Part shown: positions 9,884 through 36,597 of the stretch, piece by piece | Layout of the letters: each line of letters begins with the position of its first letter | Numbering within the stretch: the first letter of the stretch is position 1 | NCBI RefSeq assembly: GCF_028641065.1 | Contig: NC_073409.1 | Span: forward strand, 7,998,001-8,062,000 | Reading direction: 5' to 3' | Length of the DNA stretch: 64,000 nt | Source: Leucoraja erinacea | Taxonomy: Eukaryota | Notes under the pieces: generated by a model | The model's input: the letters and a program-made list of their open reading frames with translations, nothing else | What the model was told of the DNA's origin: nothing | Databases searched by the model: none | Made by a program: the position numbers and the translations under genes

Positions 9884-9967
9884 GGATGGATGGATGGATG
9901 GATGGATGGATGGATGGATGGATGGATGGATGGATGGATGGATGGATGGATGGATGGATGGATGGAT
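9884..9967. repeat. (GGAT)21 microsatellite
   Basis: Perfect tetranucleotide array read directly; it explains the MDGW/IHPS pseudo-ORFs. Confidence 0.97.
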
Positions 9968-10741
9968 TGAGAAGATGCAGAGAACACAGGGAACTGATAT
10001 ACTTGGTACAGGCATTACATGGCTGTTGTCCACCAAGCTTTCATATTTATAATATAGAAAGCCATTTGGCCCACCAAGTCTGTGCCAACACTAAGTAGTC
10101 CATTAATCCAATTCACACATTTATTTCCATGTAATCTATTCTCTTTCACCTGTCCAGCAACTCCCAATGGTTCTCCTGCTGCCCACCTACTCATGGTGCA
10201 TTTACAGTCGACAATTAACCTGCTAACTTGCTAAGCTTTGAAATGCGGGAGAAAACTAACATGATCATGGAGAGGATGCAAAGTGTTGGCGTAACCTAGC
10301 AGGTCAAGCAGCATCTCTGGAAAACATGGATACGTAAAGTTTCGGATCGGGACACTATGTGTCCTTTCGTGTAATCCAGCACCTTCAGTCCCTTGTTTCT
10401 ACATGATCATGTTCATAAGTTATAGGAGCAGAATTGGGCTATTCTGCCCATCAAGTTTACTCCGCATTCAATAGTGGCTGACCCATCTTTCTCTCGCAAA
10501 CCCATTCTCCTGCCTTCTCCCCCTAACCACGACACCCATACTAATCATGAACCTGTCAATCTCCACCTTAAATATATCCATTGACTTGGCCTCCACAGCC
10601 CTCTGTGGCAATGAATTCCACAAATTCATCACCCACCCACTAAAGAACTTGTTCATCATTTCCTTTCTGGGACATTATTTTATTCTGAGGTTATGGCCTC
10701 TGGTCCTTGACTCTTCCACGAGTGGAAACATCCTTTTCACA

Positions 10742-12925: not shown

Positions 12926-13478
12926 CGAATGTCAGTACTAGAGAGCAGTGAAAAGATTTGGGAATACATACAAATCTAATGCAATTTGGCATGTTGCCAA
13001 AGATTCCAACTTTATAGATGCATAGATTCGCAGAGTCATACAATGTGGGAACAGGCCTTTCGGTTCAACTTGCCCATGTCGATCAACATGCCCCATTTTC
13101 ACTTGTCCCTCCTGCCTGCGTTTGGACCATATCTCTCTAAACCTATCCATGTACCTGTCCAAATGTTTCTTGAAAATGTTGCAATAGTAACTGCCTCAAC
13201 TACGTCCTCCAGCAGCTCGTTCCATACTCTTTATGTAAAAATGCTACCCCTCAGGTTCCTATTATATATTTACCTCCTCATCTTAAACCCATGTCCTCTG
13301 GTTCTTGATTCCCCTACACTGGGCAAAAGACTGTGCATTTATCTAATCTATTGTACTCATGATTTTTTGCACCGTAGAAAGCATCCTATGGATTGCAGCG
13401 CAACTTGGCTTGGTTTCGACCAAGACCTCAAGAAATTTCAAGGAGACGTAGGTTTAGCCCAGTCTACCATGCAACTTA

Positions 13479-13518
<40 letters not shown>

Positions 13519-14077
13519 TCCCACTGACTCCATCTCCACTCCATGCTACCTTGAGAGAGCAGCCAACACAATGAAGGACCTCTAACAGCTCGGTCATTCC
13601 TGTTCCTTCCTTTCCAGTCGTGCAGAAGAAATTAAAGCTTGTACCATCAGTCTCAGGAAAATCCTCTTCCCTGCTATTATCAGGCCACTGATCTGACCTT
13701 TCTTAAGTTAAGAGTGGAGTCCAGAACTCCCAACCTACATCGACGCTGCCGTGCACTTGTTTTGTTCTGCAGTTCCTCTGTAGTTGCAATACTATATTAT
13801 GCATTCTGTTTTTCTCTTTGCATTACTTGTACTTGTGCAAGGATTAATTGTGCTCATACATGAAAATAATAAACCAATATCAATAACAAATCATTAACTC
13901 TACCAGACAGCGAGAGAAAGCAGAAGGTTAGCAGATTGTGGGTTTTTACTTCAAGTAGGCTGCAGTACAAGGGGAGAGGGTTACAGTTCAGTTGTGTAGG
14001 CTTTATCAGTCAACCCCTGGAGCCCATGTGTCTCTGTGTGAACTGTTTGGAAGATTGATGAAACGACTGATGAAACA

Positions 14078-15025
14078 TTTCTGTCTTGTCTTGAGGACAT
14101 TAAGTCCTGGATGGCCTTAAACTTTCTAGGACTTAACGAAAAAAAGACAGTAGTGATTTTGTTCGGCCCTAATGGCTGCCGTGAACCTCCCTCTGTTGAC
14201 TTGGGTCCACTTGCAGTGTTCGTAAAGCCAACAGTTTTAAACCTGGGTTTTATGATGGACGGTGATTTTAAATTAGATAAACAAATAGGCGCAGTGGTTA
14301 AGTCCAGCTACTTTCACCTAAGGAAGCTGGCAAAGGTGAAGCCCATTCTCGAGCGGCAGCATTTTGAAACATATATTTAATCTCGGCTGGATTACTGTAA
14401 CGCGCTCTACTCTGGAGTCTCACGAGCTTCGTTGGCTCGTCTCCAGTTGGTCCAAAATGCTGCCGCTCGCCTTTTAACCGGAACTCGAAAGAGGGAGCAC
14501 ATTACGCCAATTTTGGCCTCCCTTCACTGGCTCCCAGTGCACTTTCGAGTTAATTTTAAAATTATTTTATTTGTTTTTAAATCATTGAATGGCCTCGCCC
14601 CGCCTTACCTCTCTGAGCTGCTCCACCTATATGCTCCTACCCGGTGCCTCAGGTCAGCGGATCAGCTGCTCCTTGAGGTACCAAGGTTTAAGCGGAAGCT
14701 CAGAGGGGATAGAGCCTTTTCTGTTGCTGCCCCGGCACTCTGGATCACCTTGCCGCTGCAGATCAGACAGGCCCCTTCACTGTCCATCTTTAAATCCTCC
14801 CTAAAAACTCACTTTTATTCACTGGCTTTCGACACTGGCTGAGACATTGTTCCTGTTTTAGTGCTTTTAATGTCTTTTAATTTTTACTGTTTTTATAGTC
14901 CTGTCGTCTTAATGGTTTTAGTAGTTTGTAATAACTTTTTGTTGACTTCCCATGTACAGCACTTTGTGGTAACTGATGTTGTCTAAAAGCGCTTTATAAA
15001 TAAAGTTATTATTATTATTATTATT
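14078..15025 (+). mobile_element. 5'-truncated L2-clade LINE (ORF2 C-terminus, 3'UTR, (TTA)n tail)
   Basis: ORFs 14111-14380 and 14432-14842 encode LNEKKTVVILFG, SRLDYCNAL, RLQLVQNAAARLLT, HITPILASLHWLP, GDRAFSVAAPALW; then AATAAAG and (TTA)n at ~14999-15025. Confidence 0.92.
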
Positions 15026-18000
15026 GATTAAAGTGCTTGATTCAGTGTTTTTACTGAAACTAGACTGGGGGTAAGCTTAGAAATGAGCAATTATCTCTGG
15101 TTGCTCGATCATGATCTCAAAAGACCCCCAAACACTAGTTTGCAATCAAGCGTGTAGAGCTGTTTCGAACGCGGGTCCAGAAATCGGGCCCACACTGTGC
15201 AGGTTTCACATTTATTTCTGGCACCTCGTGAGTCGGAGCGGATCGATCATTCGCAGGCTTGGGAAAGGGTCATTAAAACAGAGTCTAGCAAGCACGGGGG
15301 AGTGGTTAACACGCCTTTGGGTTAGAGGCCCATAAAACCAGTCTAGGGTTAGAGGCCCTGATGGGGTTGGGTTAAAGGCCCGGTCCTTGGTTAGAGGCCT
15401 AAATTGGTCGTAGTTGGGCAGACTACAGCTGCCTTTAACGAGAACCTAGGTGAGGGGTGGCCAAAAGGTAGATCCTGGTATCCGAATTTGGTGGGGTATT
15501 AAAAACAGGTATTATCGTCGAATTGATCGCTGCCGGGAGCGTGAATTGAAAAGCTGCACTTCGAAAAACGGCATAATTCACAGCGCGAAGAGGCAAGGCG
15601 CTGGACCCTCAGTAATTAGCAGAGGGTGTGTCTGTGTGTAAGTTTCTGAGTCTCTCCCTGAAGTTTGGGACAAGGAGCTTCAAGAAGGTACCGAGCTTGG
15701 ATAAACTGGGTATAGATTAGCCGGAATACTCTAGTTTGTTCAAGAAAATTTAATTGGGCAATTTTAACTGATTCGAGAGCCCACATAGTAATAAAAATTA
15801 GGCGATCGAGTTCTGGTTCAAGTGTTCTAAATTTCCAGCGAAATTTCCAAATACTGGATTTCAAATTGAAGTTCTGCATAAGGTGGGATTTGAATTCCTG
15901 CATATAGAACTTCGATGTTGGTGCATGTCCGTGATCGATTCCGAATAGCGGCTGATCAACAGTGAGTAGTAACCCTCTGGTCGATTGTTGATTAGTACCT
16001 GATAGCGAAGAGTACCTGTGAGACGGGATCCTCCCTACTTGAGGAAAAGTAATCCGAATAGCGAGGCACCCCTAATTCCTTAAAACTTAGAGAGGAGGGA
16101 TAGAGGTCCCCCAATAGAAGTCCAGTCTTAGCAGAGGGATAGTAACATTCGGGAGGAAAAGTAATCATTTAAGGGAATAGTACCCCTCAGCAAAGAGTAA
16201 GTTAGGAAGGGAAAAATCTTCGGTATCAGAGGGAGAGGCTCACTGCGTGATACCAGCATGGCGCGGCGTCGAGATCGAGTGTTCGTGAATTGTGCACTAG
16301 TGCTTTAAATAATTTTGTAAATTGTAAAAATAGCTTTCTGTATTGTTATCCGGATTTTGTAAATATATTCTGTATGTAAATACATTTAGCGTAATTAAAA
16401 GTTAAGATTTAGAACGTGTTTAATAGTCCACGGACTATTGTGTTGCTGCTTGTGCGAGTGTGTACATATTTAAAACTTGAAGCGAGAGTGTGTTTAATTT
16501 AGATATTCGTATTTGTTTAAGATTGTTTTGTAAATCCGAATCGGGGTGGTTTGATCAGGGGTTGTATTCCTTCGATTGCTGCGTCGGGGAGAGGAGTCAT
16601 CTCGCTAATAGATTGCGCCACGTGGAGGGTTGATTAAAGTGGGGTTTACTGTATGATTATAGTTTATATTGGGGTGTGTTTTGGGCTGTTGATAATTGGG
16701 GGTATATTTTCATTCTTAGTTATAGTCTTGTTGGCGTGGTTTGAGTTTATCTGTTTGTGCCACCTTAAATTTAATGAAAGAAAGAGACTGCTATGTGAGA
16801 AGCTGCTGCGTGAGAGACTGTGAGTGGAAGTTAGACCCTTTGTTTAAAATTTGGAATTGAATGCAGCGATTGTGATTTAACCGATAAGAGAGTTGGGAGA
16901 GACTGAATAGGAGCTAGTGGTTTGAATAATTAAACAGGAGTGATTGGGAGATAGTCTGGAGCGGGTGTGAATCGGAAAGATCGTTACCCATTTTGAAAGA
17001 GAGATTCCATTGGAGTCTGGGAGAAGTAGTGGGAGAAAGAGGTGTTAGTCACTGGAACCTTTATTTTGCAATTTGTGTTTTGTCCATTGTTCCAAGATGG
17101 GGAATGTCTCTGAGAAGGATCGATCAAACAGATTGGACAGCCCGATAAGGATAATTTGCAGGGAGCTTCCAAATGAAGGGGATAGACTGAGGGTATTATG
17201 GGGGAAATTAAATGAACTTTTAAAAGATCAACTTTGATCTTTGGGTGGAGTAAAGTCTTTGATCGGGATAAACTATGTAGAATCATTACAGATTATGGGA
17301 ATAGTGAAGAAGCAAACAAGTTAATTCAGATGTGGAAAGCATTCTTCACTAGGAGAAAAATAAAGAAATAAATTGTTTTAATGTCCACCCTAAGAATGGC
17401 GGCTTGTAAATTGGGGATAGGAGAAGGTAATATACCTGATCCTTCTCAGGACATTTCAGAGTGGGGACAAGGGAAATTAATAAGCCAACAGCAAAAGCAG
17501 GAGCAGGAGAGTGTCATCTTTCAAAAAGGAGACTGCTGAGACGGCTCTTAAAGGGAAATTGCCAACGGAAATTAAATCGGGTAAATATGAGAAAGGGTTC
17601 GCACCCCTGAAGGGAATAATATGCCAAACTGGGCAGAGTTTTTCGGAGTAGATATAGAGCCACAGTGCCCACCAGAAAACTCCCATGTTCCTAAATCAGA
17701 GGAACCATGCGCAGTTTGCGAGCGGGACACACGGGAGGGGTCAACGTTAACTTCGGCTCCTCCAATCTAACACCGAAACATCGGGCAGAGAGTTGAATTA
17801 AAATTGGGATTAAAAATTGGAATTGGAATATAATTGGACATGGTCAAAAGAGGAACTGTGAGCAACAGGACTTCCCTTTAAGAGACCGGATTAAGAAATC
17901 ATTCAGGGGTTGAGAACTATAAGTGTGAGAACCACTAGACAACAAAGCCAATAGAATAAATGTGAGAACCCCTAGGCAGAGAACAAAGCCAACATGGTAA

Positions 18001-19320
18001 AAGCATAATAAGAGCTAATAGAATAAAGAACCAACATAGTGGAGAATTAGCATAGTATCCAGTCACATAAACAAGAGAAAAATGGAGAACAGACTTGGTT
18101 AACTATAGGGAGAAACTTGAACTGTATTGGGAATAGCAGAGCCGATGTGTATTCACCTGATGGATTTGAATTGTTTGCCTTTGATGGTAATGAGGCTTAT
18201 ATTGTCAAGGTGAAAAGAAATTGCCCCTGGATTTGGCATTCTTGATTAGATTTAGGATGAAATTAACAGTAAGAGAAATTGATTGTTTAAATTTGAACAG
18301 CTGGGAATTCCACAGGAATTGGATTATCGGCTACAATGCTGTGGAATGAAGAAGAAATGGGCATTGAAATTCGGAATAGTAATTGAAGGATAAGACTGAA
18401 TTTGGTTAAGTTGGAACATTTATCATGGTTTGCATCAAATTAAAGTCACGCCTTTAGGGGAATCTGGACTCAACCCAGCTGAAATGTATATGATTTCCTG
18501 TCACCAGATATACATAGTAACATGGTGTGAGGACGAAGGAGATTTAGTGTTGATCCTAGAATAATAACAAATGTATTAGGGAATAGAATAGGAGTAGGGA
18601 TATAGGGAAACAGGACAATATGATCGGTTCAATACGTAATAGAATAGAGCTTGGTTCAAGTGAAATAGAAATAGCAAATGTGTGTGAAAGCATGAGTGCA
18701 TAATGGTAACTTGCTTTGTCCCAAGCTTCTTAGGATTTTACTAGGGTTTATGTTTGACTGTGGAAGGTGATGGAAGGCTGGGCAGGAACACAGATGGAGG
18801 GAATTCACGTCCACGAAAACTCGGGAGGTGAAGACTCCTCAGACAGGACTTGTGAAGTCATGCCCATGAAAATTCAGGACGCTTTACAACAAGAAACAAC
18901 ATCATCTTGTGTTATTGATGGATGGGAAATGTAAAGTACACTTATGTATATCTGTATGTATATTGTCATGAACATTGTATGTATATCTGGTTAGCTGATT
19001 ACTGAGCCACTTCGGTTATCATTTATGATGGGTTAACAAAATGATAAAAGGAAGGGATGTCAATCCTGGCTAAATTGGACCAGCTAGGACTCCAACATGG
19101 GGTTAAGTTTCAGGGTTGCTGAGAAATGTGGTCAAATTGGAATGGGAATTGCTCTCTGCATGGCTGGGACAGGCTGCGACGGGTGCCAGGGAGTCTGGAA
19201 CGAAGATACAATTTGCCAGCAAAGAATGGGAAGCCTTACAAACCCTGTCAATCTGGTGCTAAATGCATTAAATGGATTGGATGACTGCAAACCAGACAAA
19301 CACCTTGTAAATAATGATGC
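15026..19320 (+). mobile_element. Degenerate, apparently pol-less LTR retroelement / endogenous retrovirus-like sequence
   Basis: ATTAAA plus U5-like segment ending ..TTTCACA (15210); PBS-like TGGCACCTCGTGAGTCGGA (15219-15237); long leader; decayed Gag-MA-like frame from ATG 17097 (MGNVSEKDRSNRLDSPIRIIC...KDQL*SLGG); purine tract AAAAGGAAGGGA (19046-19057) followed by TGT. No paired LTRs seen. The 5' LTR may extend to ~13890, upstream of the L2 insertion. Confidence 0.55.
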
Positions 19321-19321
19321 A

Positions 19322-20004
19322 GAGATATGTGCCGTGATGGACTGTGCTGGAATCTGGTGGCACATGCGTTCAAGTGGTTACACACACTCACTGAAGCCTC
19401 ACTGGATCAGGCACTCACAGCTGCCTTGTGAGAGCTGTATAACTGAGCCTGGAAAAAAAATAGACATTTTCCAAAGAGGCTTTTATCAAATATTTCTTAA
19501 TGATTGGATGATAGCCGGCCCCAACAAGTTCACACATTGTGTGTCGGTTTATTAGTTTGACATTGACTGATAACCATTGGTAGTCCTCCTCTCAGGAATT
19601 AGGCAGGTCAATTTGTATTATTGATTGATCCCATTTATGCAGTCTTTGAAAATGTAGAGTTTACAGGAAAATGCTGTCCAAGAAATCAAAGGGGAAATCA
19701 ATCCAATTATATTTGCTGTCGTTGTCAGTGAAGGTGATTTAGTTCCCATTTTGCAGAAACAAGCAGAAACAAGTGAGCCCACTGGTTAACATTGTCCCAA
19801 TTAATCTCCTACAGAACATTTGCATGTCACTATGGTTAACTTAGTCAAGTCCTGGCAGCAGCAGAGACCAAGGATATTGTCAATATCTTCATACCCATCC
19901 ACTGCCTGAGTAGTGCATCCTCACGGATCCAATGACCTGGCTTTGATCGTGACCTCCAGAATTGTCTATGTGGAGTTTGCACAGTCTCCTTGTGATGGAG
20001 TGGA
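19322..20004 (-). repeat. Right arm of the inverted duplication (MTHFS 3'UTR/3' flank)
   Basis: Reverse-complement match to 10742-11258 plus 12767-12925; lies about 160 bp past the MTHFS stop codon. Confidence 0.93.
19548..19553 (-). terminator. Candidate distal MTHFS polyadenylation signal (AATAAA); a proximal candidate lies at 20116-20121
   Basis: TTTATT on the plus strand, downstream of the MTHFS stop. Confidence 0.4.
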
Positions 20005-20166
20005 GTAATTGTTGTCATCAATGTTCTTCACCACTGATTAGCAGAAAGTCAAATTAAATGATTTTCCTCTTCATAAATGATTATTCTTTTCAGCGTTCAT
20101 GGATAATTGCTGTCCTTTATTTAGAATGATCTTTCTGTCCAATTCACCAGGATCCAATGAGCTCAT

Positions 20167-20390
20167 CTACGATGTCTCATACAATACTTCATCAATTGGC
20201 TTATCGCTTTCAGTCACAGGCACCAGATCACATATCTGCTCCTTGAAGGCCACGGCAATTGTGTAGGGTTTGCCCTTTGGATGCTTAAGACAACGCTCCA
20301 GGTAAGTGTCATAGTAACCCTTCCCTCTTCCCAATCTGTTGCCATGTTTGTCGAACCCCAGTCCAGGCATCAGGATCAGATCAAGGCCTC
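20167..20390 (-). CDS. MTHFS: 5-formyltetrahydrofolate cyclo-ligase (methenyltetrahydrofolate synthetase), exon 3 (last)
   Basis: [34 protein letters not shown]...DEVLYETS* contains the ATP-binding [10 protein letters not shown] motif. Acceptor TTTCAAACAG; phase 1 matches exon 2. Confidence 0.97.
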
Positions 20391-21608
20391 CTGTTTGAAA
20401 GAGCAAGAATATTGTTGAAAGAGAAAGAATATCAAGTACATAACCATATGAAGGTTAAAAAAAAAACACCGAACTACATGTCAGAAGAGAGTGTCCAGCT
20501 GAGGAACTTGAACAAACAAACCCCTGTCTTTCTTTTTTCATTTGTTGCATGGGTTGATATCAAATACTTTTGTACTACATCTGTGTGACTTTTACTGAAT
20601 CCAAAAGAATAGGAGGTTTAAGACAGTAATATAAATATTAAGTCTTGTTTAATAAAGCTGTTGTGAAATATTTCAGAAGTTGTTTAAAGTTAAGAATAAC
20701 AAAAGTTTTTACAGTTGCCCTCAAATAAATTCCTTTCACCATGATGATGACCTGGAAGCATTTAATGGGACCTTGTCTTCTATTCTTAAAGTAAGAAACT
20801 GCAGATACTGTAAAGCTGCAATAAAAACAGATTTTCAGGCCAATACAAGCTTTTCTAAGGCAAGCAAGATGTGAGATTATTATTGGTTCTAGAAAACATG
20901 AAGCTAAAAAAGTATTCAAGAAAAATATCTTGGAATTTTTCATGATCTCAAGATGTTTAACAGTACGTCATACTTCATGAAACACATTATTATAAGAATA
21001 AAGATCAAGGGAACATCAAGTTTACTATTAACAAAATTGTGGAAATAACATTTTAATCTACTTTAATGTACTTCATTGTTTCATTATTTTCTTAACAGTT
21101 GCTTACTTGCGTTCAGAGATAGATTTCTGGATATTAAGGGATATTGGCATAATGCAGGAGAAAGATCAATCATTATTTTGAATGTAGAGCAGGATTGAAA
21201 GCCCAAATGGTTTACGCCTGGCTCTGTTTGTGATATAACAGAAGAAACAAGTCAGATGTGGTCAGAAAAGCAAAGACTACAGAGGTACCAACAAAAATTA
21301 TTCCAAGAACTGGAAGCTGGGACTCGGGATTAAGATGCGAGGATTGTTTTGTTTGTGCATGTGTGAAGTGACAACAACACCATTCTTCACAGATGCCCGT
21401 AATGGCCCTCGTTTTGTTCAGGGCAGTGCCTCGAGTTGGCAAACTCAGAAACCTGTTCATAAACATTTAGGGATGATTCATCAGCAAGAATGGTACTGAC
21501 TCTGGGTTTGCTACTTTGGAAGCTGGATTTACGACACATTTGGAGGAAGCACAATATTATCATCAAATCTCATTTGGTGATGCTTCAAATGTGTGAAACA
21601 GAAGGAGT

Positions 21609-21614
21609 TATAAT
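21609..21614 (+). promoter_or_regulatory. Possible TATA-like element of the nested C1q-domain gene
   Basis: TATAAT about 75 bp upstream of the predicted ATG (21685); positional inference only. Confidence 0.3.
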
Positions 21615-21684
21615 CCACACGACCTGAAGACCAAACACATTGGCTGAAAAAGAAGTTGGAGAGCAGAAAGCTGCTCTGATCAAA

Positions 21685-21687
21685 ATG
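21685..21687 (+). CDS. Nested C1q-domain gene, coding exon 1 (ATG only)
   Basis: CAAAATG|GTACGT has A at -3 and a good donor; a 79-bp intron leads to TTTTATTTTATTTCAG; phase 0. Confidence 0.65.
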
Positions 21688-21766
21688 GTACGTGAAGTTG
21701 CATTGGCAATGTTTAACAAATGTGGTTATTTTTGCTCAAGTGAAAGGATGTTTTATTTTATTTCAG

Positions 21767-21844
21767 AAAAACCTGCTGTATTTGATCCTCTTTTACTGTA
21801 TCTATCAATCGAGCACTTTGGACGATGATCTGGAATATTTTCTG
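21767..21844 (+). CDS. Nested C1q-domain gene, exon 2 (signal peptide)
   Basis: KNLLYLILFYCIYQSSTLDDDLEYFL has basic-hydrophobic-small residue organisation; acceptor TTTCAG, donor CTG|GTAAGG; 78 bp, phase 0-0. Confidence 0.8.
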
Positions 21845-22584
21845 GTAAGGATAGAAAATTAATTATATGTATTTTCTAATACTCCATTTGAATGACACCA
21901 GTTATTTCTTTCTCTGTCTTCTCCCCTTACGGTCACAATATTCCAGTTCATTTTGCACTCTTTCCCTTCATCTCTCTGTTCCTGTTATTCTTTGATTGTC
22001 CAATTATTTATCTTTGCTCTGATATCACCATTCTGTATCTGATTAGTTTGCTTCATGATCTTTTACTGTTTCTTCCCATCCTTTCTCTTGCCTTGCATCT
22101 GTTCCTATGCTCCTTCTCTCCATCTACATTCTCCTTTTGTGCATTACTGCAACTCTTTCTTCCTCTCTCACTCTCTTTTTATCTATACATCTTATTTCAC
22201 CCTCTAACCCCCCCACCAATCCTATCCTTGTTCATTGACTGTGATCCCCAACATCTTCCATTTAAGTTATCATTCTATTATTTGAATATCTTCATGGTCG
22301 TGTCTCTTCCAGTTCACATAATTTCCTCTGCAATATACGTTTTACATAAACCATCACAGAAGCCAAATATATCTTGTGTTAAACTTTCAAAAGTAATTTT
22401 GCATTGTACGGTTTAAAGTGTTAAGATCTTCCAAAATGACTTTTGGCACAAAAAAAAACACACACTATTAGCTATTGGGGATTAATCAATCAATTAATTA
22501 ATTAATTGTTTGATTGATTGCTGCTTTATGAATGAATGGCCCGAACAATTGATGAGTTTTCTTCCAATTATTTGAATGGTTCAG

Positions 22585-22672
22585 AAAACACCTGATGAAG
22601 AAATGGATGTGAAACCACTGCACCAGGCTCAAATGCCAAATCCCAAAATGGGAAATGATAATACGTGTGGAG
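22585..22672 (+). CDS. Nested C1q-domain gene, exon 3 (linker)
   Basis: KTPDEEMDVKPLHQAQMPNPKMGNDNTCG+G; acceptor TTCAG, consensus donor GAG|GTGAGT; 88 bp, phase 0-1, which exactly bridges exons 2 and 4. Confidence 0.78.
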
Positions 22673-23313
22673 GTGAGTTCTTTCGCAAAAAAAAGTTGTG
22701 GGTATAACGAATTGTTGCTTGCCATGATGGCCACGTAATTCAACCATGAGTTGATTCATGAGTTAATAAAAAATATTCATCTCGTGTCAAAAATAATAAT
22801 AACTAATTCCAGGTAGGAATGGGAGGAAATCCATTCCATTCCACTTTCTAACTGGTGGCCGTTGGCCCAACTCCAGATGATAAATTAATGAATAAGTTTA
22901 TTGGCCAAGTATTCACATACAAGGAATTTGCCTTGGTGCTCCCCCCGCAAGTGACAACATGACATACAGTGACAGTTAGGAACAACACATAAAACATTAT
23001 CAATTAAACATGTGAATTAAACGCTGCCCGGGCCATTGACTCTATAAAAGCTGCCTATTTTTATTTTTCTCTCAGTATTCAACTGCCTTCCCTTTGAATA
23101 ACCCACAACTCCCTATAATTAAATGCTCTAGAATGTGATTTGCACTTTTCCATTTCCAATCCAAGAGTCAATTGCCTCAAATTGTTTGAATTTTGTTTGC
23201 TTATATACAAGGTGGATTGTGCTCTACACTTTAATCTTTACATCATCAATAAGGAGAGACAATAAAAGTAGTCATATTGCCATTAGGTTCAATCTACAAT
23301 TTTACTTTCACAG

Positions 23314-23711
23314 GCAACAACGTGAGTTTTGATGCAGAGCGAACCTCATATGAACATGTGATAGGGACCAACGTGACCATTATTTTTGATAAGCTTAATC
23401 TCAATACAACCAAAGATTACAACCCCACCACTGGGATATTCATATGCCAAGTTCCTGGTATATACTTCTTCAGTTTTTCTTCTCTGCCAAAGAGAGGGGT
23501 TCATACTGACGTGGTCCTGATGAAGAATGAGACAAAAATCAGTAACATCCACAGTGTGCTGTCTGCTGGTACCAGCCAGCTCGCTGTCAAGAATGCCATA
23601 TTGAAACTCGAAAAGTTCGAATCTGTGTGGGTCCGGCTTGAACGTGGAGAACTCTGGAGCCGGGATGGATCAATCAGCTTCCAGGGATTTCTCATATATG
23701 GTTCAGCCTAA
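23314..23711 (+). CDS. Nested C1q-domain gene, exon 4: globular C1q domain (C1qDC / cerebellin-like)
   Basis: Acceptor TTTACTTTCACAG, phase 1. VSFDA...TIIFDKLNLN...YNPTTGIFICQVPGIYFFSF...VVLMKN...AILKLEKFESVWVRL...SFQGFLIY* reproduces the gC1q signature motifs. Open frame with a normal stop. Confidence 0.93.
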
Positions 23712-26700
23712 GAAGACAGCGTGAAATGTCAGGGTTCATTCTTATATTCAGTGTTGCAACATAAGAGCTTGGTGGGATAGAATCTGAAGTTTCAAGTACA
23801 ACCTGCTGAATACTCATTTCAGTAGTCAGAAAATAACATGTTCAATTTTACAGACAAAGATTTTGTCCCAACAATCACACATGTCCAGACACCAAAAAGG
23901 AGAGTGGATTGTCCCTGGAAATCACAGATGATTTCAAGTGTGTTTTCGCTTTAAAAAAATGCTTATTGTTTGGGCTGTTGCAGAATGTACTCCAATAATT
24001 AATCCAGTTCATAGATAAATGTTGAACAAGAGCCAAAGAGTTAGAAGTTAAGTAAGAAGTACCGTGCATAGGAGCCAAAGGCACGGATCATTGAAGACCG
24101 TGTCTGAATGGAAGTTAAATCATGGCCTGAAGGTAGATACAAAATGCTGGAGTAACTCAGCGGGACAGGCAGCATCGCTGGAGAGAAGGGTGATGTTTCA
24201 GGTCGAGACCCATCTTTAAACTAAGAGTCAGGGAAAGGGAAATATGAGATATAGCTCGTTATATCTCTCATTTACCTTTCTCCTAAAATTATTGTTGCTC
24301 CAGCATTTCGTGCTATCTTCAGTTTGAACCAGCATCTGCAGTTCCTTCCTACACATTAAATCATGGCCTGCTCGGCAAAACAAAGCAAATGCAACTTCAA
24401 AGGTGCAAAGATAATGCACTCATGCTGTATTTTATAGAATGTAGTCAGTAGCTACCGCTGTTTGCAGATTTATCAATAAAGGCTAAAGCATCAGCATTGG
24501 ATTTTGTGTTTTGATTCTCACAGATGGTAGTAAAACAAACAATGACATGACTTTGATTAAAACATCACCAATATGATGAATGGCTTTTAAAGGTTGATTA
24601 AAGCATTCCACTTTACAACAATTGGAAGGTAATGAAAAGATTAGGCCAGGATCAGAAATCTATCCGGGCGGGGAGTGAGCATTATGCCAAGGAGTAACTG
24701 TACACCAGCAGTGAATGAGCAGTTGTTCAGAGGGGGAGATGGGGAGGCTAAGTAGAAGGTAGTGGGGAAGGTTAAGTGGGGAGATGGAATAAAGAGAGAG
24801 AGAATACAAGTGAGGAAGAAAAGGAAAGCCAGATGCAGGGGAACAATAGAATTTGGAGCTTTCGGACAAACAAAAAATAGAAATGCAGAGTATTTTTGCG
24901 AATGACGAGAAATGAAATGGTGTCGGTGTTCAGAGGGACCAGAGTGTCCTTGTACACAAAGCACTAAAAGATTAAGCAGATTCAGTAACAACTGGGAAGT
25001 CAAATGGTGCATTGTCTTCATTGGAAGATCTGAGTAGAAGAATAAAGAAGAGTAAAGACATCATGTTCTGATTATAGAGGGTAAAACTGAGGACGTGCCG
25101 AGAATATTTTGTACAGGCTTGTCCTTCCTTTATGTGAAAGAGGGAGCACAACAAAAGTGCAGCAGGTTAAATTCTGAGATGGCAGATTGATGACGGAAGA
25201 GAAATTAGGGCCCATCCCTATGCTCACCAAAGCCCCTTCACTCACAGCAACCCACACGCTGAATGCTGTTGAACAGCAACCATGCTGTTTATTGTGAAAA
25301 CTCAAATAACATTAGCCCAGTCAGCTGATTTCACTGGCTTTCAGATAGGAGTTCTCAAGTGGTCTCCACAATAAACATTCAAGAAATGCCTGGTCTTTAA
25401 TTCATTGTTGATTCAAGCAGCTTTTTAAGCCTGAAGGATGCCCGATTAATCATATTTAAATGCAAGGCAGAATTTGAACAATCCAGCAATTTATGTATTA
25501 TGCAGTTTTCCACACTGTTGGGGAGATGCCAGTGTTGTAACTATAGTCATCGTATTCCCCTGACATTTGACTCATGTGCAGCTTCAATTTGATTTAGACA
25601 TAACATAAACAAATCCCCTTTTATACCAATGCAACTCAAAAATGCATCATATTCAGATATTTATATCTTCCTGAACATAATATGAACATTGTTACAATGA
25701 TTCAACCAGCACCACCATTAATGGCTCAGAGTAAGCTCAAAGCAATGTAGCACGACAAAGTCTATGCTGTCTCACAGAACTCAATGTCGTAGCGTAAGAA
25801 AGGTCAGTTCAAAAATCGACAGATGGAACTTGAATTAACAGCTTAAGAGCAGGTCTACACTCATTCGACATCAGGACTTCTACAAAGAAGCCGAGGTAAA
25901 GGTATTGGCAAAGGCAAGCCACTTGATGGAGGTCAGCACTTTGAACAACTCGCAAAGATTTGTAGTGCACTGCCATCTGCTGGGTAAATTGGGCATTTTC
26001 AACGCCAATAGTAGCTGGAGATTTAAAGTACCCAAATTTGGATGTTGGAAGCAAGAGGTCAATACTGAAATTTTCTGACAAAGCCAGATCGGTAGCACTA
26101 CAAATTATTAGGTGGATTGGAAAAGACTGAAGAAAGAATCCTAATAGGACAATTAGGCAGATTGACACACTGGGTACCAATTCAGCACACAAGACCAGAT
26201 AAATGAAACATTTAAAGAGGTCAAAATTGTTGAAAGCGGATGTTGATATGCAGGTCATTTAGTGACATAAGAAAATTAAGATGGTTGGGATTAATTTAGA
26301 AACACAGGTAAACAAGGTTTTAGCTGTCTAATCTAGAGACACGTTTGAGCATCTCATCACAGGAAAGTACAAGAACTGATTGTTATCAAGGTTAGGATAG
26401 ATTGAGGTCATAAATACCAGTTAGGGTTTCGAAGTTATTCACTTTCACAGCAAGAATAGAAAAGCAGAATATTGAACAGATGGAGATACCGCAGAAGGCT
26501 GATCTGGCCGTCATCGTATTAACATGTTAACATGTGGGTGCAGCAAATAATTACAAACACAAATGGAACATTGGCCTTTATGGCAAAGCATAAATGAACC
26601 ATTAAATTGACACCAAGCGTAAATATTTCCTATTTCAGCAGATATTCCGCAAGCTGATGAACAGCTTCCTTTGGACACAAACTAAATATCACCATTTTTG

Positions 26701-27397
26701 GATTTCACAAACAAAGTTTGCCATTGTTTCACTTCAGGCTTGAAAAGAAGTACACATTTAAACCTTTTATCCTTCAGATAAATAATATAATTAAGTTTGC
26801 GTTTGCTCTATGCACGGCCTTATAGCAGCTTTAAATGCTAAAAATCACAATCGCAGTCAGTAACCTGTTTTGCTGTGTCATTGTTTGAAGTGCATTCTTA
26901 GCTTCAGCAAACATTCACAGCAGAGAGTTAGGCAATTTTGCATCAAGTTCAAACTGGTCAACAAGGCAAACAGAATAAAACAGAATCAGAGTGTTGGCCG
27001 TTAAGGGGAATAGTTACAAGCTGAACTTGCATGATCAATGAGCATTGTAAATATGGTCAGAATTAGTAGATTTAAATACAATAATACTTTGTTATTGGAA
27101 CAATGAGGTAAAATTGATGATGGAAACACATACAGATTTTAGTTAGTTTGTTTCTGGAAGCATCCAAAGGTTATATTGACCAACGTCTATTTTGGTGAAT
27201 ATAGAACCTAGTTAAATATTTAATGAAAAGGCTAGAAACACACTGCACAATACCAGCAAGAGCATCTTCAAAAAAAGACAAAAAGTTGTAAACCATAAAT
27301 TACCATTTGAAAACATACTTTCTTTGCTGGTTTTTATGAAGCCACGTTTTCATCACAGTAGCTAAAGCAAGTGAACCAGTTATGGGAAAAATTCACA

Positions 27398-28270
27398 TCA
27401 ATCAATCAATCAATCAATCAGTTTTATTCGTCACGCACATGAATTTGCCAGCAGCAGTACAATGAAAAAAGAACACACAAAAACACAATAACAATTTAAC
27501 ACAAACATCCACCACAGCATTCATCACTGTGGTGGAAGGCACAAAATTTGGCCAGTCCTCCTCCATTTACCCCCGTGATCGGGACCTCAACTCTCCTCAG
27601 CCGCCGCTGCGGGCGTCCAGATGTGTAGACAAGATAAAGTCCAGTTAAGTCCTGAATCGGTGCCTCCCCACCGGAGTACGCGGCTTCAGGTTGGTGTAGG
27701 CCGCAGGCCGGCGGTCGAAGATCTAAAGTCCCCACCGTGCTGCAGCCGGAAGCACCGCAGACGGCAGGGCCGGCGGTCGGAGCTCCTCTCCAGGGGTCCC
27801 CGGCGAGGGACCCACTCCGGATGGCAAGTGCCCGCCGCGCCCGCGGTGGAAGTTTGCCGCGGGCCGGCCGTCGGAGCTCTTCTCCTCCCGGGTCCCCAAC
27901 GAGGGATCCCAGGCTGCGGATGCTGCGCTAGCTGGAGCTCCGCAGACTGCGGCTTCAGGCTGCTGTGGGCCAGCAAACAGAGCGCTCCCCTCCAGCTGCG
28001 AGAGTCCGCGCTGCGCCCGCCGCTGAACCCCGGGCACGTCTCCGGGAAAGGCTGCACCGATCCTTGCTGTTAGGCCTCAGGGGAGACATGGAAAAAGTCG
28101 CCTCTCCGTGGAGGAGGTGACCAAAGCGGTTTCCCCCTTAGCCTCCCACACCACCCCACACGAGACACACAGAAAGACACCAAAAACACACATTAGGACA
28201 CACACAAAAAAAAACTAGAAAAAACTAACAAGCTGCTGGCAGGGCTACCGGCTTGCAGCGCCTCCACCGA
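27398..28270 (-). mobile_element. CpG-rich non-autonomous retroposon with a (TGAT)n tail in MTHFS intron 2
   Basis: (ATCA)n at 27398-27420. The 3' segment CACAG..ATGAATGCTGTGGTGGATGTTTGTGTTAAA resembles plus-strand repeats at ~5100-5630 and ~8545-8790. The body is GC/CpG-rich with no coherent ORF. Confidence 0.6.
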
Positions 28271-28688
28271 CACATATTTTAAGACTAAAGATTTTAACAG
28301 CAGAAATTGAGTTGGAGGAATGGATGTTGCTTGATTGGGAACAGGGGAATTGCAGGAAGGGTTATTTGAACATAGTTGACATTTTAAAATCATGGTGTTG
28401 TTGCTTTAGTAGCCAACACACAGTTTGCCAAGCACAAGGATTTATGAAGGTTGGAAGATGGGTGGCCAACAAAGGCAGCATAGGAGTTACGAAAATTAAA
28501 GCGAACAAATCCATGGGTAAAGATTTCAGCTGAACTTGGACTGAAGCAACGCAAAGATATGTGGTGATACAGAGTTCGAGGTATTTGTGATGTGGAGAAC
28601 CAAGTGTAAGAGACCCATGCCTAAGTAAAATCCTTAAGAATAAGATGTTTAAAGTCCAAAAGCAATAAATCTCAAGTTAATTACCAAC

Positions 28689-28950
28689 CTGTGGTTAGTG
28701 CCTCTTCCAGCAACACATCTTCTGCAGGCTGGTGAATGTTCCAGGAAGTCAGGGGCAGGTTGTGGATTTCTTCAGCTGAGCTGAGCTTTACCATATCCAT
28801 GTGGTTGCTTCTAGGCTTGTACCGTGGAATGAAACACTGTTTTCCACATTGGAACACATCCTTTATTATATCTTCTGTCTGAATTTCATCAGACATGCTC
28901 AGAAAGACAGCAATTCTTTGGCAGTTCTGGTACTTGGGATGAGCCAGTAA
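28689..28950 (-). CDS. MTHFS: Methenyltetrahydrofolate synthetase, exon 2
   Basis: [44 protein letters not shown]...LTSWNIHQP...EEALTT; acceptor TTTCTTTCAG, donor G|GTTGGT; 262 bp, phase 0-1. Confidence 0.96.
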
Positions 28951-29159
28951 CTGAAAGAAAAAAAGAGCAAATCAGTTGGAATGATGTAGAAAGGCACATA
29001 AAAGGTTTTAATTTAAATTAATCAACTAATTTGATAATTGCAGAAATCACCATGTTGTCCTGGTTGAAAATGTTCTGAATGAAAGGGTGGTGGATGGAAA
29101 TTCAATAATAATTTTCAAAAGGGAATGGAATAACTACATAGAAAACTGCAGAACCATGG

Positions 29160-29640
29160 AGGGCACTTCGGGTCGAGCATGTGGCTGGTGGAAATGATGC
29201 TGGATAAAAAGTTGCAGATGATTGGGCAAAGGGAAGAGATGAAAAGACAGAAGATGTTAAGACAAAAGCATTGAAGAGTTATGAATTGTGATGCTAAAGA
29301 AGGAATGTGGGTCTAAGCTGATGGGGGGGGGGGGGGGCAGAAATAGGTGCCAGGTGAGGGGGGGGGGGGGGAGAGAGATTGGAGGAGGTCCAGGACAGAA
29401 AAGTTGCTATGGGAATTGGAAGAGATATTAAAAAGGTTAACCAACAGGAGATTCAGTAGACCTTGGCAGATAGAGTGCAAGTGCTCGACAAAACAGTCGG
29501 CAAGTCTACACTTGGTCTCAGCCAAGCCAGTGTCCAGGAGGCCATATCGGGAACACCGGATGCAGTAGATGAGGTTAGAGGAAGTGCATGTGAACCTTTG
29601 CCTCACCTGGAAGGACTGCTGGGGTGCCATGATGGAGATG
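29160..29640 (-). mobile_element. Degenerate Penelope fragment (GIY-YIG region)
   Basis: QQSFQVRQRFTCTSSNLIYCIRCSRYGLL..AETKCRLADCFVEHL, homologous to the 11435-11776 frame. Confidence 0.8.
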
Positions 29641-31452
29641 ACAGAGAAGGTATATGTACAGGTGTCACCTTGAAAGATTGCTGGGTGCCCTGGGTGGAGG
29701 CGAGGGAGCAAGTAAAGGAGCTGGTGCCTTTCTTTTTGTACTTATAGGCAAACAGTCCATGATGATCACAATGAAAGATACATCTTTATTGGTCAATAAA
29801 AAAATTACTCCAAAATTTCCATTTCTAACTTTAACTGCAATGCCAATCTTTGAACACCAGCATCAGTTTAAACAATCTTACTCCAGGATGCATCTTTGTG
29901 ATGTATTCATATTACTGAAAATTCATATTTTGTATCACAAAAGAATCGCTACAAGGAGTAAAATTAGTTGCAGGCTACACGGATAGTGATTAGGGGAAAC
30001 TGATCTTTCTTACTTAGGACAGCTCAGGTAATTGCACAGAATACAGGAAGTATACTGAACTTCATTGAGCCAAGCAGAAGACGTTGGCCCTTTGGCACAC
30101 CACATCCACACCTACCTTTTTGCCGACCTATACCTGGTCCAATAAGTTTAGTTTAGTTTATTGTCATGTGTACCGAGGTAGTGAGAAGCTTTTTGTTGAA
30201 TGCTAACCAGTCAGCGGAAAGATTATACATGATTATAATCGAGTCATCCAGTGTACAGAGACATGGTAAAGGGAATAACGTTTAATGCAAGATAAAGCCC
30301 AGTAAAGTCCAATTAAAGATAGTCCGATGGCCCCAATGAGGCAGATCGTAGCTCAGGAATGCTCTCTGGTTGTTGGTACGGTGGCTTAGTTGCCTGATAA
30401 CGCTGGGAAGAAAATGTCCCTGAATTTGGAGGTGTGCGTTTTCACGCCTATACCTCTTGCGAGAGGAGACGAGGAGGTGACCAGGGTGAGACGTCCTTGA
30501 TTATACTGGTGGCCTTGCCCAGGCAGTGTGAGGGGTAAATGGAGTCAATGGAAGGGAGGTTGGTTTGTGTAATGGTCTGGGCTGCGCCCACAATTGTCTA
30601 CAATTTCTTGTCAAGATATGAATCTTATGCGTTGATATTAAGGATGATCATCTTGAACTATATACTAGTGATATTGAATTTAATTCTGAAAAGAAATGGA
30701 GATGCTTTTCAGAACAACTAATAAGTTAAAGTGTAGGAAGGAACTGCAAATGCTGGTTTACACCAAACAACAGCGAATGTCTTTAAGAAGGAACTGCAGA
30801 TGCTGGAAAATCGAAGGTACACAAAAAAGCTGAAGAAACTCAGCGGGTCTGAAGAAGGGTTTCGGCCCGAAACGTTGCCTATTTCCTTTGCTCCATAGAT
30901 GCTGCTGCACCCGCTGAGTTTCTCCAGATTTTTTGTGTAACAGACAATGTCTACTTTGATCTGTCGTTTTCACACCTTACCCTTCTATATCTCTCGTCTC
31001 CTAATCCCCTGACTGACTGAAGAAGGGTCTCGACTGAAAACCTCACCCATTCCTTCTCTCCATAGTTGCTGTCTGACCCGCTGAGTTACCCCAGCATTTT
31101 GTCTCTATCTTTCTGTTTTTGCCCAGGTGACCTGCACGATCTGACCCCCTTCCTCTTCTGCACTTCTCTCTATAATCACCGTTGAACCTTCTTTCTCCGC
31201 CCCACAGTAAATAAGACACCCACCTGCCGTCTAAGGTATGCAGCCACTGTGATAGTTTTGTGTCTGTAATGTTAAAGTACTGAGGAACAGAGGGAGCTCG
31301 GTGCACAAACAAAGCCCAGGCAGCACTGGTGGAGAAGGCGGATAGGATAGCGGCCCTCACCGACCCTTTAAACCATCAACACACCCACCCACCCACCACC
31401 TCCCGCCCGCCCGCCCGCAGCGAGGGTTAGACGGGCCGCTGCCGCCCCTCAC

Positions 31453-31563
31453 CCGCCGGCTCACGGCCGCCGTCTGCCTCCTCTTCTCGGCGTCGCTCAG
31501 CGCCGCGACTCTCCGCTTCAGGTCCAAACGCAAGGCCTTCTTAGCGGCCCACAAGGCGGCCAT
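31453..31563 (-). CDS. MTHFS: Methenyltetrahydrofolate synthetase, exon 1
   Basis: MAALWAAKKALRLDLKRRVAALSDAEKRRQTAAVSRR; Kozak AACATGG; donor CGG|GTGAGG; inside a CpG island. Exons sum to 111+262+224=597 nt (198 aa). Confidence 0.95.
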
Positions 31564-31601
31564 GTTTGTCCCCTGGCTGTCCATCAGTGGCCACACGAAG
31601 C

Positions 31602-31996
31602 GCCCCCCCGCCCCCAGCGGTTTGTAGCCCCCCCCCCCCCCCCCCCCCAGGGCCCGCCCCCAGTGGGTTGTAGCCCCGCCCCCAGTGGGTTGTAGCCCCG
31701 CCCCAAGTGGGTTGTAGCCCCGCCCCCAGCGGGACGTAGCCCCGCCCCCAGCGGGTTGTAGCCCCGCCCTCAGTGGGTTGTAGTAGCCCCGCCCCCAGCG
31801 GGCTGTAGCCCCGCCCCCAGCGGGTTGTAGCCCCGCCCCCAGCGGGTTGTAGCCCCGCCCCCAGCGGGTTGTAGCCCCGCCCCCAGCGGGTTGTAGCCCC
31901 GCCCCCAGTGGGTTGTAACCCCGCCCCCCGCGGGTTGTAGCCCCGCCACCAGCGGGTTGTAGCCCCGCCCCCAGCGGGACGTAGCCCCGCCCCCAA
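31602..31996. repeat. 22-bp GC-box minisatellite (~16-17 units of GTAGCCCCGCCCCCAGCGGGTT) in the MTHFS promoter/5' region
   Basis: Period of 22 read directly (e.g. GTAG at 31805, 31827, 31849). Nearly every unit reads GGGGCGGGGC on the minus strand. Confidence 0.95.
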
Positions 31997-32039
31997 CTCG
32001 TGAACGCGCCTCGCACTCCCGTGGCCCAGCACAGTTCGT

Positions 32040-32250
32040 ATTCCTTCTCTCCCCTCCTCCCTCTCTATCGCCCCTCCTCACTCTCTCTCTCCCCCTCCCT
32101 CCCCCTCCTCACTCTCTCTATCCCTCCCCTCCCCCCTCCCCCCTCACTCCCTCCCACTCTCTCTCCCCCTCCTCCCTCTTTCCTTCTCCTCCCACTCTCT
32201 CCCCCCTCCCTCCCACTCTCTCCCCCCTCCCTCTTTCCTTCTCCTCCCTG
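32040..32250. repeat. Polypyrimidine (CT-rich) low-complexity tract
   Basis: Almost exclusively C/T on the plus strand. Confidence 0.9.
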
Positions 32251-33419
32251 TTTTGTGCAGGAATCATGATGCAGAAAGATAATTGTTAACTTTTGCAAAG
32301 AAAGGTGTAAATTATTTTTTTGCAGGGCATGGCAAAAAGCCAGAGTGCAATGAACTGAATAATGAACAACCTAGATAGAGTGGACATGAAAAGGATGTTT
32401 CCAGTGGGACCCGAGGGCACAGCCTCAGAATAAAAGGGCGTATCTTTAGCATGGAGATGACACAAATGGTCATTCAGCCTTCCTCTCTGCTGTGAGGCGG
32501 ATGGTAAACATATAGCTTTTGTGAAGCACATACTCTGGCATAGCTTTAATGATAGGAAAGACTCCAAGATTCAGCTAGGTTGTGTCTCAGGAGCTACATC
32601 AGTCATCTTTCTTTTAAAGCTTCTTCCCCTCTGTTATCAGGCTTCTGAACAATAAGCTAAGGTATTGTCCTTTTGTTTATGGAACTGATGCGATACAATG
32701 CTGAGAAATATATTCTGAAACCTGGATCTTCCCCTATGCTCTATATATTTGTCCCTCCATGACACACTGGTCAACCTCAGCAACAGACTGGTTCCACCAA
32801 GATACAGTGCAGAACCCCACAGGGAATCCTTCTTCCCTGTAGCGATCAAACTACAACTACCCCCCCCCCCCCCCCCCCCCCCCGTCATGGGGTAAAACAA
32901 ACTCCTCTCCCCAATCTTTGCCCATCCCCAATCCTTTCCACTCAGCACTTTAATTTCATGGTTCATGTATTTTGTGTTTAATAACTGTTGGCAGATCAAT
33001 TTCCCTCCTGGGATAAATAAAGTTCTACCGTATCGTGTATTGTCCATGGTTCAACTTGATTGTGTCCTTGGAGAGTATATCTGATTAGTTTGGATAACAT
33101 GCAAACAAAGCTTTTCACTGTACCTACACACATGTGACAGAAATAAACCAAAATCACCGACTCACTAGGTGTTGAAGGAATGCACGGATAATTACACAAT
33201 TGTGACTGCTGGAGTCACAATTAACATTGGGATATTCACCAATAATTGGCATCATCTCTTTCAAAATTCAACAAATTCCAAATTTGGTGTTTCTTAGACA
33301 TCTCTTGAAACTTTTCTTGAAATGTACAAACCAGCCATACTGAATTAACGACCAAGTAAGCACATCGACGCTTCTACTTCCTAAGTAAGCTTAGGACGTT
33401 CAGCATGTCCCCACCAATT

Positions 33420-33932
33420 TCTACACATGCGCCCTAGAAAGCATTTTATCGGGATCCATCACAGCTTGGTTTGGGAACAGCTCCATCCAAGACCGCAAGA
33501 AATTGCAGCAAATTGTGGACGCAACCCAGACCGTCACGCAAACCAACTTCCCTTCCATTGACTCTACCTCATGCTGCCTCAGCAAGGCCGAGTCACACTC
33601 CCTCTTCTCCCCTCCCCCATCGAGCAAAAGGTATAGAAGTGTGAAAATAAACACCTCCAGATTCAGGGAGTTTCTTCCCAGCTGTTCTCAGGCAACTGAA
33701 CCATCCTACCGCAACTAGAGAGCAGTACTGAAGTACAATCTACCTCATCGGGGACCCTCGTACTATAATTGATCGGACTCTACTGGCTTGACCTTGCACT
33801 AAACGTTATTCCTTTATCATGTATGTACACTGACAATGGCTCAATTAGAATGTGTTGTCTTTCCACTGGCTGGTTAGCACACAACAAAGGCTTTTCACTA
33901 TACCTTGATACGTGACAATAAATTAAACTGAA
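33420..33932 (+). mobile_element. Rex1/Babar-like LINE 3' remnant
   Basis: ESILSGSITAWFGNSSIQDRKKLQQIVDATQ peptide plus a tail ending GTGACAATAAA(CTAAA/CTGAA). Related minus-strand copies at ~30145-30610 and ~60895-61060. Confidence 0.75.
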
Positions 33933-36450: not shown

Positions 36451-36456
36451 TTTATT
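36451..36456 (-). terminator. Candidate BCL2A1 polyadenylation signal (AATAAA); a second one lies at 36384-36389
   Basis: TTTATT on the plus strand, about 140 bp after the stop codon. Confidence 0.55.
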
Positions 36457-36597
36457 GCACATAAATTCTTCATCTTTGCTTAGATTCAACAAACTTCACA
36501 AAAGTTAATTAGACCAAGTCCTGTGCAGGTTGTCAGTTCAAGGATAATGGTCACCTGCTGCTTAGGTTTCTGATGTGTGGAATTCACTCCCACGTTT

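Follow-up and report, generated by a model that had tools for sequence, protein, structure and literature searches.

What kind of gene lies antisense to MTHFS in the skate Leucoraja erinacea, and what has happened to it there? The locus falls within a stretch of 64,000 nucleotides, here called the window (RefSeq assembly GCF_028641065.1, contig NC_073409.1, positions 7,998,001 to 8,062,000 of the forward strand), in which an earlier note had proposed a four-exon gene for a secreted protein with a globular C1q (gC1q) domain. That note overlooked the main feature of the locus: the gene exists in tandem copies, named A (in the window), B and C, whose head exon, encoding the gC1q domain, appears to be positively selected. 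On balance, we judge it probable that this is an intact shark-and-ray gC1q gene for a likely secreted, predicted homotrimeric recognition protein, the head of which is under diversifying selection in skates, most likely against microbial or parasite surfaces.

Gene model and encoded protein

Copy A is an intact four-exon, collagen-less gene with a single gC1q domain, laid out as follows.

21685..21687, plus strand: coding part of exon 1 (ATG only, with the 5′ untranslated region upstream); the ATG|GT is the same in copies B and C
21767..21844, plus strand: exon 2, encoding a hydrophobic stretch that is probably the signal peptide, and the beginning of the acidic linker; 96-97% identity to copies B and C
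22585..22672, plus strand: exon 3, acidic and proline-rich linker with Cys55; 100% identity to copy B and 97.7% to copy C
23314..23711, plus strand: coding part of exon 4, the whole gC1q domain (amino acids 58-188; Pfam, fold and trimer models) and stop; probable target of positive selection (codon tests)
23712..24480, plus strand: probable 3′ untranslated region, judged from a first AATAAA at 24475, its end without read support

The proposed exon structure is reproduced in the sequence, with GT donors and AG acceptors at all joins, phases 0, 0 and 1, and a coding sequence of 567 nt that specifies 188 amino acids and a TAA stop without an internal stop; an in-frame stop precedes the ATG. The four-exon joins in copies B and C equal the RefSeq proteins XP_055517142.1 and XP_055517140.1 letter for letter, and these exact matches lend the copy A model independent support far beyond chance. 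The untranslated frame upstream of the ATG (21620-21687) resembles by eye the longer N-terminal extension of the Heptranchias protein P0007, a likeness that suggests a conserved exon 1.

The proposed domain is equally secure. Pfam C1q (PF00386) matches copy A at E 7.7e-24 over model positions 2-127 of 127, and the score of 84.8 bits lies above the curated cut-off of 23.7 for the gC1q superfamily. A motif scan finds no (Gxx)2 run, and hence no Gly-X-Y collagen region, in copy A or any other skate or ray sequence of the family, again as proposed. Between the signal stretch and the single head lies a low-confidence linker of about 40 amino acids. The protein is likely to be secreted, judging by an N-terminal hydrophobic stretch (9-residue Kyte-Doolittle values up to 2.6 within the first 13 amino acids) that is conserved across the alignment of the MTHFS-linked gC1q family; downstream of it, no 19-residue Kyte-Doolittle window of copy A exceeds 1.31, as a membrane anchor would.

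Two details of the earlier description hold for copy A and do not extend to the family. Cysteines stand at positions 12, 55 and 101, so the linker of copy A has one; the Rhinoraja protein P0003 has none there. Four N-glycosylation sequons are present (NVS59, NVT76, NTT87 and NET128); copy B has two, and Rhinoraja P0003 and Hypanus have none. Conserved glycosylation was rejected for this variation of the sequon set, and a cerebellin-like disulfide hexamer for want of a conserved N-terminal Cys pair.

Divergence confined to the head exon

When the head exon was searched against the genome, 30 of 48 scored candidates matched: copy A itself, copy C (97% identity, about 59 kb to the left), copy B (61%, about 8 kb left of the window), four copies of 36-40% identity on unplaced contigs, and ordinary gC1q genes that are more distant. 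Along the gene, the nucleotide identity of A and B is 92.0% upstream, 98.0% in the intron 1 region, 96.2% in exon 2, 96.5% in intron 2, 100% in exon 3 and 98.7% and 96.4% at the two ends of intron 3; it is 79.0% in exon 4 and 94.3% in the 3′ flank. Exon 4 thus differs at 81 of 386 nucleotides (Fisher p 2e-25 versus pooled flanks), and the mismatches rise sharply at its acceptor, become fewer over the conserved stretch of strand C and fall off past the stop. Exon 4 of copy C is 98.4% identical to that of copy A.

At the protein level, 54 of the 57 N-terminal residues are identical between A and B (95%) versus 78 of 128 in the head (61%; p 5e-7). The 50 head differences include no indel or internal stop, and 20 of them change charge class; 39 head positions are invariant in 18 sequences.

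The Amblyraja protein is B-type, with 121 of 128 head residues equal to copy B, which places the split of A and B heads before that of the genera Leucoraja and Amblyraja. This old split, taken with an exon 4 synonymous divergence (dS) of 0.14 against about 0.05 in the flanks, suggests that the flanks were homogenised later. At fourfold sites A and B differ in 3 of 35 cases (p 0.16 versus 4%), so that exon 4 is not shown to be older than its flanks.

Four reads in the RNA run X17, with two start points, carry three exon 4 differences (23454, 23491 and 23519), two of which change an amino acid and one of which matches B; they possibly represent an allele or a further copy.

Probable selection on the head exon

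The ratio of nonsynonymous to synonymous divergence (dN/dS, omega) between A and B in exon 4 is 1.6 by the Nei-Gojobori method (p 0.07), and 1.96-2.01 for the head in a maximum-likelihood codon model (dN 0.28-0.29, dS 0.14, p 0.047-0.055). When sites are sorted by sequences other than A and B, omega is 2.9 (p 0.003) for the 66 of 127 codons that vary within a set of nine shark sequences, 3.3 (p 0.0005) for sites at which the 12 outgroup sequences are not all alike and 0.25 at 43 family-invariant sites, only three of which differ between A and B. Model M2a is favoured over M1a (p 0.001 and 0.0002) and assigns an omega of 4.9-5.7 to 53-56% of codons; the preference holds with double-base mutations allowed (p 0.013, A versus B), and none of 68 null simulations reaches the observed statistic. 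A and C, compared on six differences, give an omega of 0.37. In a sister cluster of gC1q genes used as a control, selection is mostly of the ordinary purifying kind: omega is 0.37-0.51 in five of six pairs, the flanks are more diverged than the exon, and no M2a signal appears in any of the three pairs tested. The earlier note had named a dN/dS near 1 in relatives as an observation that would count against the gene; the present tests, made on copies within one genome, give about 2 overall (p about 0.05), with M2a at p 0.001.

A second line of evidence comes from rates across species, obtained from proteins only. Shark lineages mostly show 70-80% identity in the head versus 54-65% in the N-terminal part; among skate genera the relation is reversed, with 57-59% in the head versus 73-79%. 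With MTHFS as the yardstick, the gC1q protein distance reaches a ratio of 10-11 between Leucoraja and Rhinoraja, of 1.2-2.4 between shark families and orders, of 4.4 in one close shark pair and of 3-5 in ray comparisons. One independent pair of copies and the cross-species rates together support positive selection on the head exon as the probable cause of its divergence.

Predicted structure

The AlphaFold model of copy A has a mean pLDDT of 72, with the first 27 residues below 50, and all Foldseek matches listed are gC1q domains (best E 2e-8, TM 0.60-0.74); the head is accordingly predicted to be a gC1q jelly-roll beta-sandwich. A homotrimer is predicted as well: the three-copy model scores 0.95, versus 0.00 for the best of three controls, its runs agree in 97% of contacts, and pLDDT is at least 91. 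In calibration, 21 of 30 solved pairs (17 of 29 from eukaryotes, 7 of 16 from animals) and none of 23 single chains attained the mark used; among seven eukaryotic cases without an older solved relative, one did so. Since gC1q trimers have already been solved, the pass may reflect memory, and is to be read as likeness to known trimers, not as binding. In three other skate comparisons, changes avoid strands C-H (p 0.001-0.017).

Proposed function

The signal stretch would export the protein, and the heads of the trimer would bind surface ligands. A-type and B-type heads would have different specificities, diversified by an arms race, with the flanks kept alike by recent duplication, gene conversion or both, and selection holding the two head types apart, in the pattern known from the red and green opsins. 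We infer, by analogy, that the ligand is immune (microbial).

A more far-reaching version, which we hold to be possible and put forward tentatively, is that skates have made a hypervariable secreted recognition system out of an old and slow shark gC1q gene that had been nested in MTHFS since before the shark/ray split. Here, duplication would have served this gene only, conversion would have kept its signal, linker and regulatory DNA uniform, strong selection would have rewritten about half of the head, and A and B chains would be co-expressed, possibly in mixed trimers.

Expression and alternative explanations

Raw RNA reads were drawn from four of 12 listed runs (four studies, about 1-25% of each run), with a joint threshold of three reads. 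The C1q gene is silent or low in the RNA samples examined. Four contig runs, assumed to be RNA, have a depth of 35-97 over MTHFS exon 3 and background depth in the C1q region, and one contig passes unspliced across intron 1; a repeat at about 24130-24350 fills their joint listing, so junction absence is not inferable from these runs. Interspersed repeats at 22883-23000 (intron 3) and 24123-24360 (3′ region) dominate read depth.

A number of observations weigh against the recognition protein proposed here. The junctions 21687^21767, 21844^22585 and 22672^23314, which the earlier note had put forward for checking, are absent from the spliced reads of all four raw runs; two stranded runs with an MTHFS depth of 7-15 have no sense-strand cover of the C1q exons; and faint cover (depth about 0.5-6), found in run X13 only, is not confined to exons, being present in exon bins and at the end of intron 3 and missing from intron 2. 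The core of the putative signal peptide, judged by hydropathy, is short. The whole-domain omega test is borderline at p about 0.05, and shark-invariant sites have an omega of about 1.1, which would also fit partly relaxed constraint. With double-base mutations, C versus B reaches p 0.04 only, and since copy C is 98% like copy A, the selection tests amount to a single independent comparison. The control is not uniform, given that the sister pair L005/L007 has an omega of 3.9 (not significant; nine amino acid changes on 10 nucleotide differences). Exon 4 dS, at 0.14, exceeds flank divergence (about 0.03-0.07), and the history is therefore not simple. Finally, A and B do not differ significantly less often at the predicted trimer interface (14 of 45 residues) than elsewhere in the head (36 of 83; p 0.19), and none of six pairs shows significant avoidance of changes at that interface; nor is their shortfall in strands C-H significant for A and B (15 of 52 within, 35 of 76 outside; p 0.065).

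Several of these points would be expected if constraint had simply been relaxed and gene conversion had done the rest, such that old paralogous head exons evolve near-neutrally in skates and the flanks owe their likeness to conversion or recent reshuffling, with no adaptation. The borderline whole-domain test, an exon dS about three times the flank divergence, the omega at shark-invariant sites and the faint RNA cover all fit, as does the stop of copy C, two codons earlier than that of copy A. We nonetheless consider such an account improbable in view of 50 amino acid differences free of indels and stops, the 39 invariant head positions, the three changes at 43 family-invariant sites, the preference for M2a even with multi-base mutations and in simulation, and a divergence peak that ends at the exon edge.

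A different question is whether the partner is microbial at all, because positive selection does not name its cause. The same gene under the same selection could encode a matrix or recognition protein of reproductive tissue, egg case, skin or sensory organs, driven by sexual conflict or gamete recognition. At most faint expression in the four raw runs fits a narrow tissue, and gC1q domains also have matrix and synaptic roles: the solved structures most similar to the head include those of collagen X, cerebellin and C1QL. No tissue data point in that direction, however, and the nearest parallels found, in architecture as in evolution, are immune; we give a non-microbial partner a minor but real chance.

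The earlier note had also suggested immune co-regulation with the neighbouring BCL2A1, a suggestion that found no backing: there is no NF-kB consensus in 20400-21800, and BCL2A1 exon 1 lies more than 15 kb from the C1q gene, past the MTHFS start. A STAT-type palindrome at 21301 is kept in C and altered in B, and with 10 such sites per 64 kb it is not counted as evidence.

The host locus and its tandem units

The exons of MTHFS were mapped with the RefSeq protein P0035. The surrounding features are as follows.

31453..31584, minus strand: coding part of MTHFS exon 1; no copy found in the 70 kb preceding the window
28689..28950, minus strand: MTHFS exon 2; likewise no copy found in the 70 kb preceding the window
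20167..20390, minus strand: coding part of MTHFS exon 3 (also RNA depth)
20391..28688, minus strand: MTHFS intron 2, the host intron
39184..39696, minus strand: Bcl-2 family exon (Pfam PF00452, E 4.2e-21), BCL2A1-like by the label in the earlier note and by synteny
1126..41029, no strand assigned: window unit of a three-unit tandem segmental duplication, pieces of which recur at C33:7932076-7972142 and 7975862-7995932

This map places the C1q gene antisense inside MTHFS intron 2, as had been claimed. Nothing was found to suggest a functional tie to MTHFS beyond position. A quick motif scan of 32500-39190 did not locate a second coding exon of the Bcl-2 family gene. A tandem repeat with a GC-rich unit of about 22 bp occupies 31690-32000, a short way upstream of where MTHFS translation starts.

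About 40 kb of the window is found twice more in the 70 kb to its left, with some 3-10% mismatches and many indels. Both upstream units are without MTHFS exons 1 and 2, and one retains a copy of exon 3; the Bcl-2 exon is broken in both, with a 4-nt insertion (frameshift) at C33:7971616-7972142 and a short remnant near 7995235. Only the C1q gene has retained an uninterrupted reading frame with canonical splice sites in each of the three units, and set against the MTHFS and BCL2A1 fragments this marks it as the probable retained cargo of the duplications. Its intron 3 measures 641 nt in A, 1276 in C and 4327 in B.

The second MTHFS exon 3 (C33:7958793-7958993), 59 kb downstream, encodes protein identical to that of the window exon, and the surrounding C33:7958602-7959046 (L019/L028) is 99.3% identical in nucleotides to window 20006-20450. 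This second exon 3 might be used as an alternative last exon, and all three C1q copies would then lie in one long intron. The identity stops at window 20006, where the window copy enters a repeat also present at 10742-10845; the matches of the contig runs end at the same base.

The near-identity of the two exon 3 regions also raises the thought that balancing selection maintains, or once maintained, the A and B types as highly divergent alleles, the array consisting in part of haplotypes assembled in series or of alleles that afterwards became fixed next to each other. For Amblyraja, the protein returned was of B-type only, and the four X17 reads as a set match no assembled copy. Such an origin is quite unlikely, though, for an array of three units, more than two haplotypes can supply, which differ by the mismatches and indels given above and of which the two upstream ones share the loss of MTHFS exons 1 and 2 and have Bcl-2 exons that are broken; two family proteins each are, moreover, also listed for Rhinoraja, Mustelus and Scyliorhinus torazame.

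Family and distribution

A profile built from five skate and ray proteins was searched against 3650 candidates. It matches 12 proteins of 158-227 amino acids at E up to 1e-8, all from sharks or rays, with homology spanning signal, linker and head (profile E 1e-104 to 1e-48 for the 12 proteins) and, as in copy A, one gC1q domain only; cluster members contribute three further shark species. No bony-fish protein is among these named matches, so that within them the gene is lineage-specific, as had been surmised. In an exhaustive search of 50% representatives, three full-length matches above 200 bits are followed by a gap, and the next single-domain match, P0058 (128 bits), is encoded on the skate unplaced contig C986, in the sister cluster:

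C1493:92677, 127809 and 152669, and C986:32931-41348 (L004-L007, L027), no strand assigned: sister gC1q cluster of four genes, 36-40% head identity; the C986 gene has the same four-exon plan

The neighbourhood of the C1q gene and MTHFS is conserved across sharks and rays. In all 11 species with records for both genes at the National Center for Biotechnology Information (NCBI; Pristiophorus left out), the two proteins come from contigs of equal length and have RefSeq accessions 1-4 apart; it is adjacency, not nesting, that is seen there. Several further species with an MTHFS match returned no family member, which is not evidence of absence.

The earlier note called the gene hidden. Copy A is indeed absent from the returned clusters, but its two paralogues and the orthologues in 11 other species are already RefSeq or UniRef predictions, under names as inconsistent as C1QTNF1-, 3-, 4- and 6-like, C1QL2/4 and cerebellin-4-like. 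In a 48-row tree the family and the sister cluster group apart from gC1q sequences that we take, from their motifs, to be CTRP3-, CTRP4- and collagen-like; support for the family node is modest (85/80). Collagen exons upstream would, according to the earlier note, have made the gene a known C1QTNF orthologue; orthology to C1QTNF3/4 was rejected on the lack of Gly-X-Y, the one gC1q domain and the separate clade. The nearest single-domain matches outside the family are P0064, P0065, P0066, P0073, P0075, P0097 and P0114, of which P0065, P0075, P0097 and P0114 form a clade with a single gC1q domain and a His-rich linker, the nearest outside group in the tree, with weak support.

A literature search, including by accession number, found no paper on the family, its MTHFS position or its selection, with subscription journals and most supplements outside its coverage. 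The available part of one study (PMC10707392) mentions C1q in dogfish mucus without identity, and its one supplement file has 0 C1q matches. The protein class is known and the paralogues are auto-annotated; the evolutionary signature is unusual.

Comparison with known systems

The innate immunity of cartilaginous fishes is poorly mapped, and soluble pattern recognition there leaves room for candidates. A figure legend in one review (PMC6795676) gives MBL, ficolin, C1qA and C1qC as absent from the cartilaginous genomes studied. A shark-and-ray gC1q gene turning to strong diversifying selection in skates would, by analogy with immune gC1q proteins, be a concrete candidate for pattern recognition. 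Copies A and B offer two natural head variants on the same stalk, suited to direct comparison of ligands. The locus also provides a clean vertebrate case of a divergence peak confined to an exon, and an example of an old nested or adjacent gene that is misnamed differently in each genome annotation.

CBLN1-4 are secreted gC1q proteins that lack collagen, like the probably secreted skate protein, and the profile matches Cbln1 at E 4e-14. Identity in structure alignments is 20-26%, however, and cerebellins evolve slowly whereas the skate gene evolves fast. Their hallmark, two conserved N-terminal Cys for hexamer formation, is not matched by the one linker Cys of copy A or by the Rhinoraja protein, which has none. 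C1QTNF3 and C1QTNF4 (the latter with two tandem gC1q domains) share only the gC1q domain with the skate gene, which has a single domain, no collagen stalk and a clade of its own. The acute-phase cerebellin-like and C1q-like proteins of teleosts are collagen-less secreted gC1q proteins, also of fish, but no bony-fish protein is found among the 12 family matches. In trout, C1q-like and cerebellin-like proteins increase after bacterial infection, according to the available part of PMC6167799.

For the exon-confined divergence, the closest parallel is that of the red and green opsins, tandem duplicates in which the introns are homogeneous and a single exon stands out as highly diverged (PMC3924837, available part). 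The skate divergence differs from it in spanning a whole domain exon with 50 amino acid changes, and conversion would here be read from the DNA of one species.

In architecture and evolution, the gene comes closest to the bivalve and invertebrate sghC1q proteins (C1q-like type II), which, in the available part of PMC6835236, share the signal peptide (inferred for the skate), the lack of collagen, the one gC1q domain, tandem duplication and positive selection on new copies. The nearest feature matches in the ESM Atlas are molluscan C1q-domain clusters of 178-182 amino acids (score 0.94-0.95), a lead and not homology. The skate gene differs in being vertebrate, in having few copies versus hundreds and in its acidic linker of 40 amino acids, which in the scheme of that source places it between sghC1q and the coiled-coil type II. 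The tandem clusters of C1q-domain-containing (C1qDC) genes in oyster, described there as lectin-like, undergo episodic positive selection at 5-10% of sites versus about half of the skate head codons, by differing methods, and in the skate, conservation is greater in the introns than in the exon, opposite to what is described for oyster. Should the hypervariable skate system tentatively outlined above prove true, it would be a vertebrate counterpart of the diversified C1qDC lectins of bivalves.

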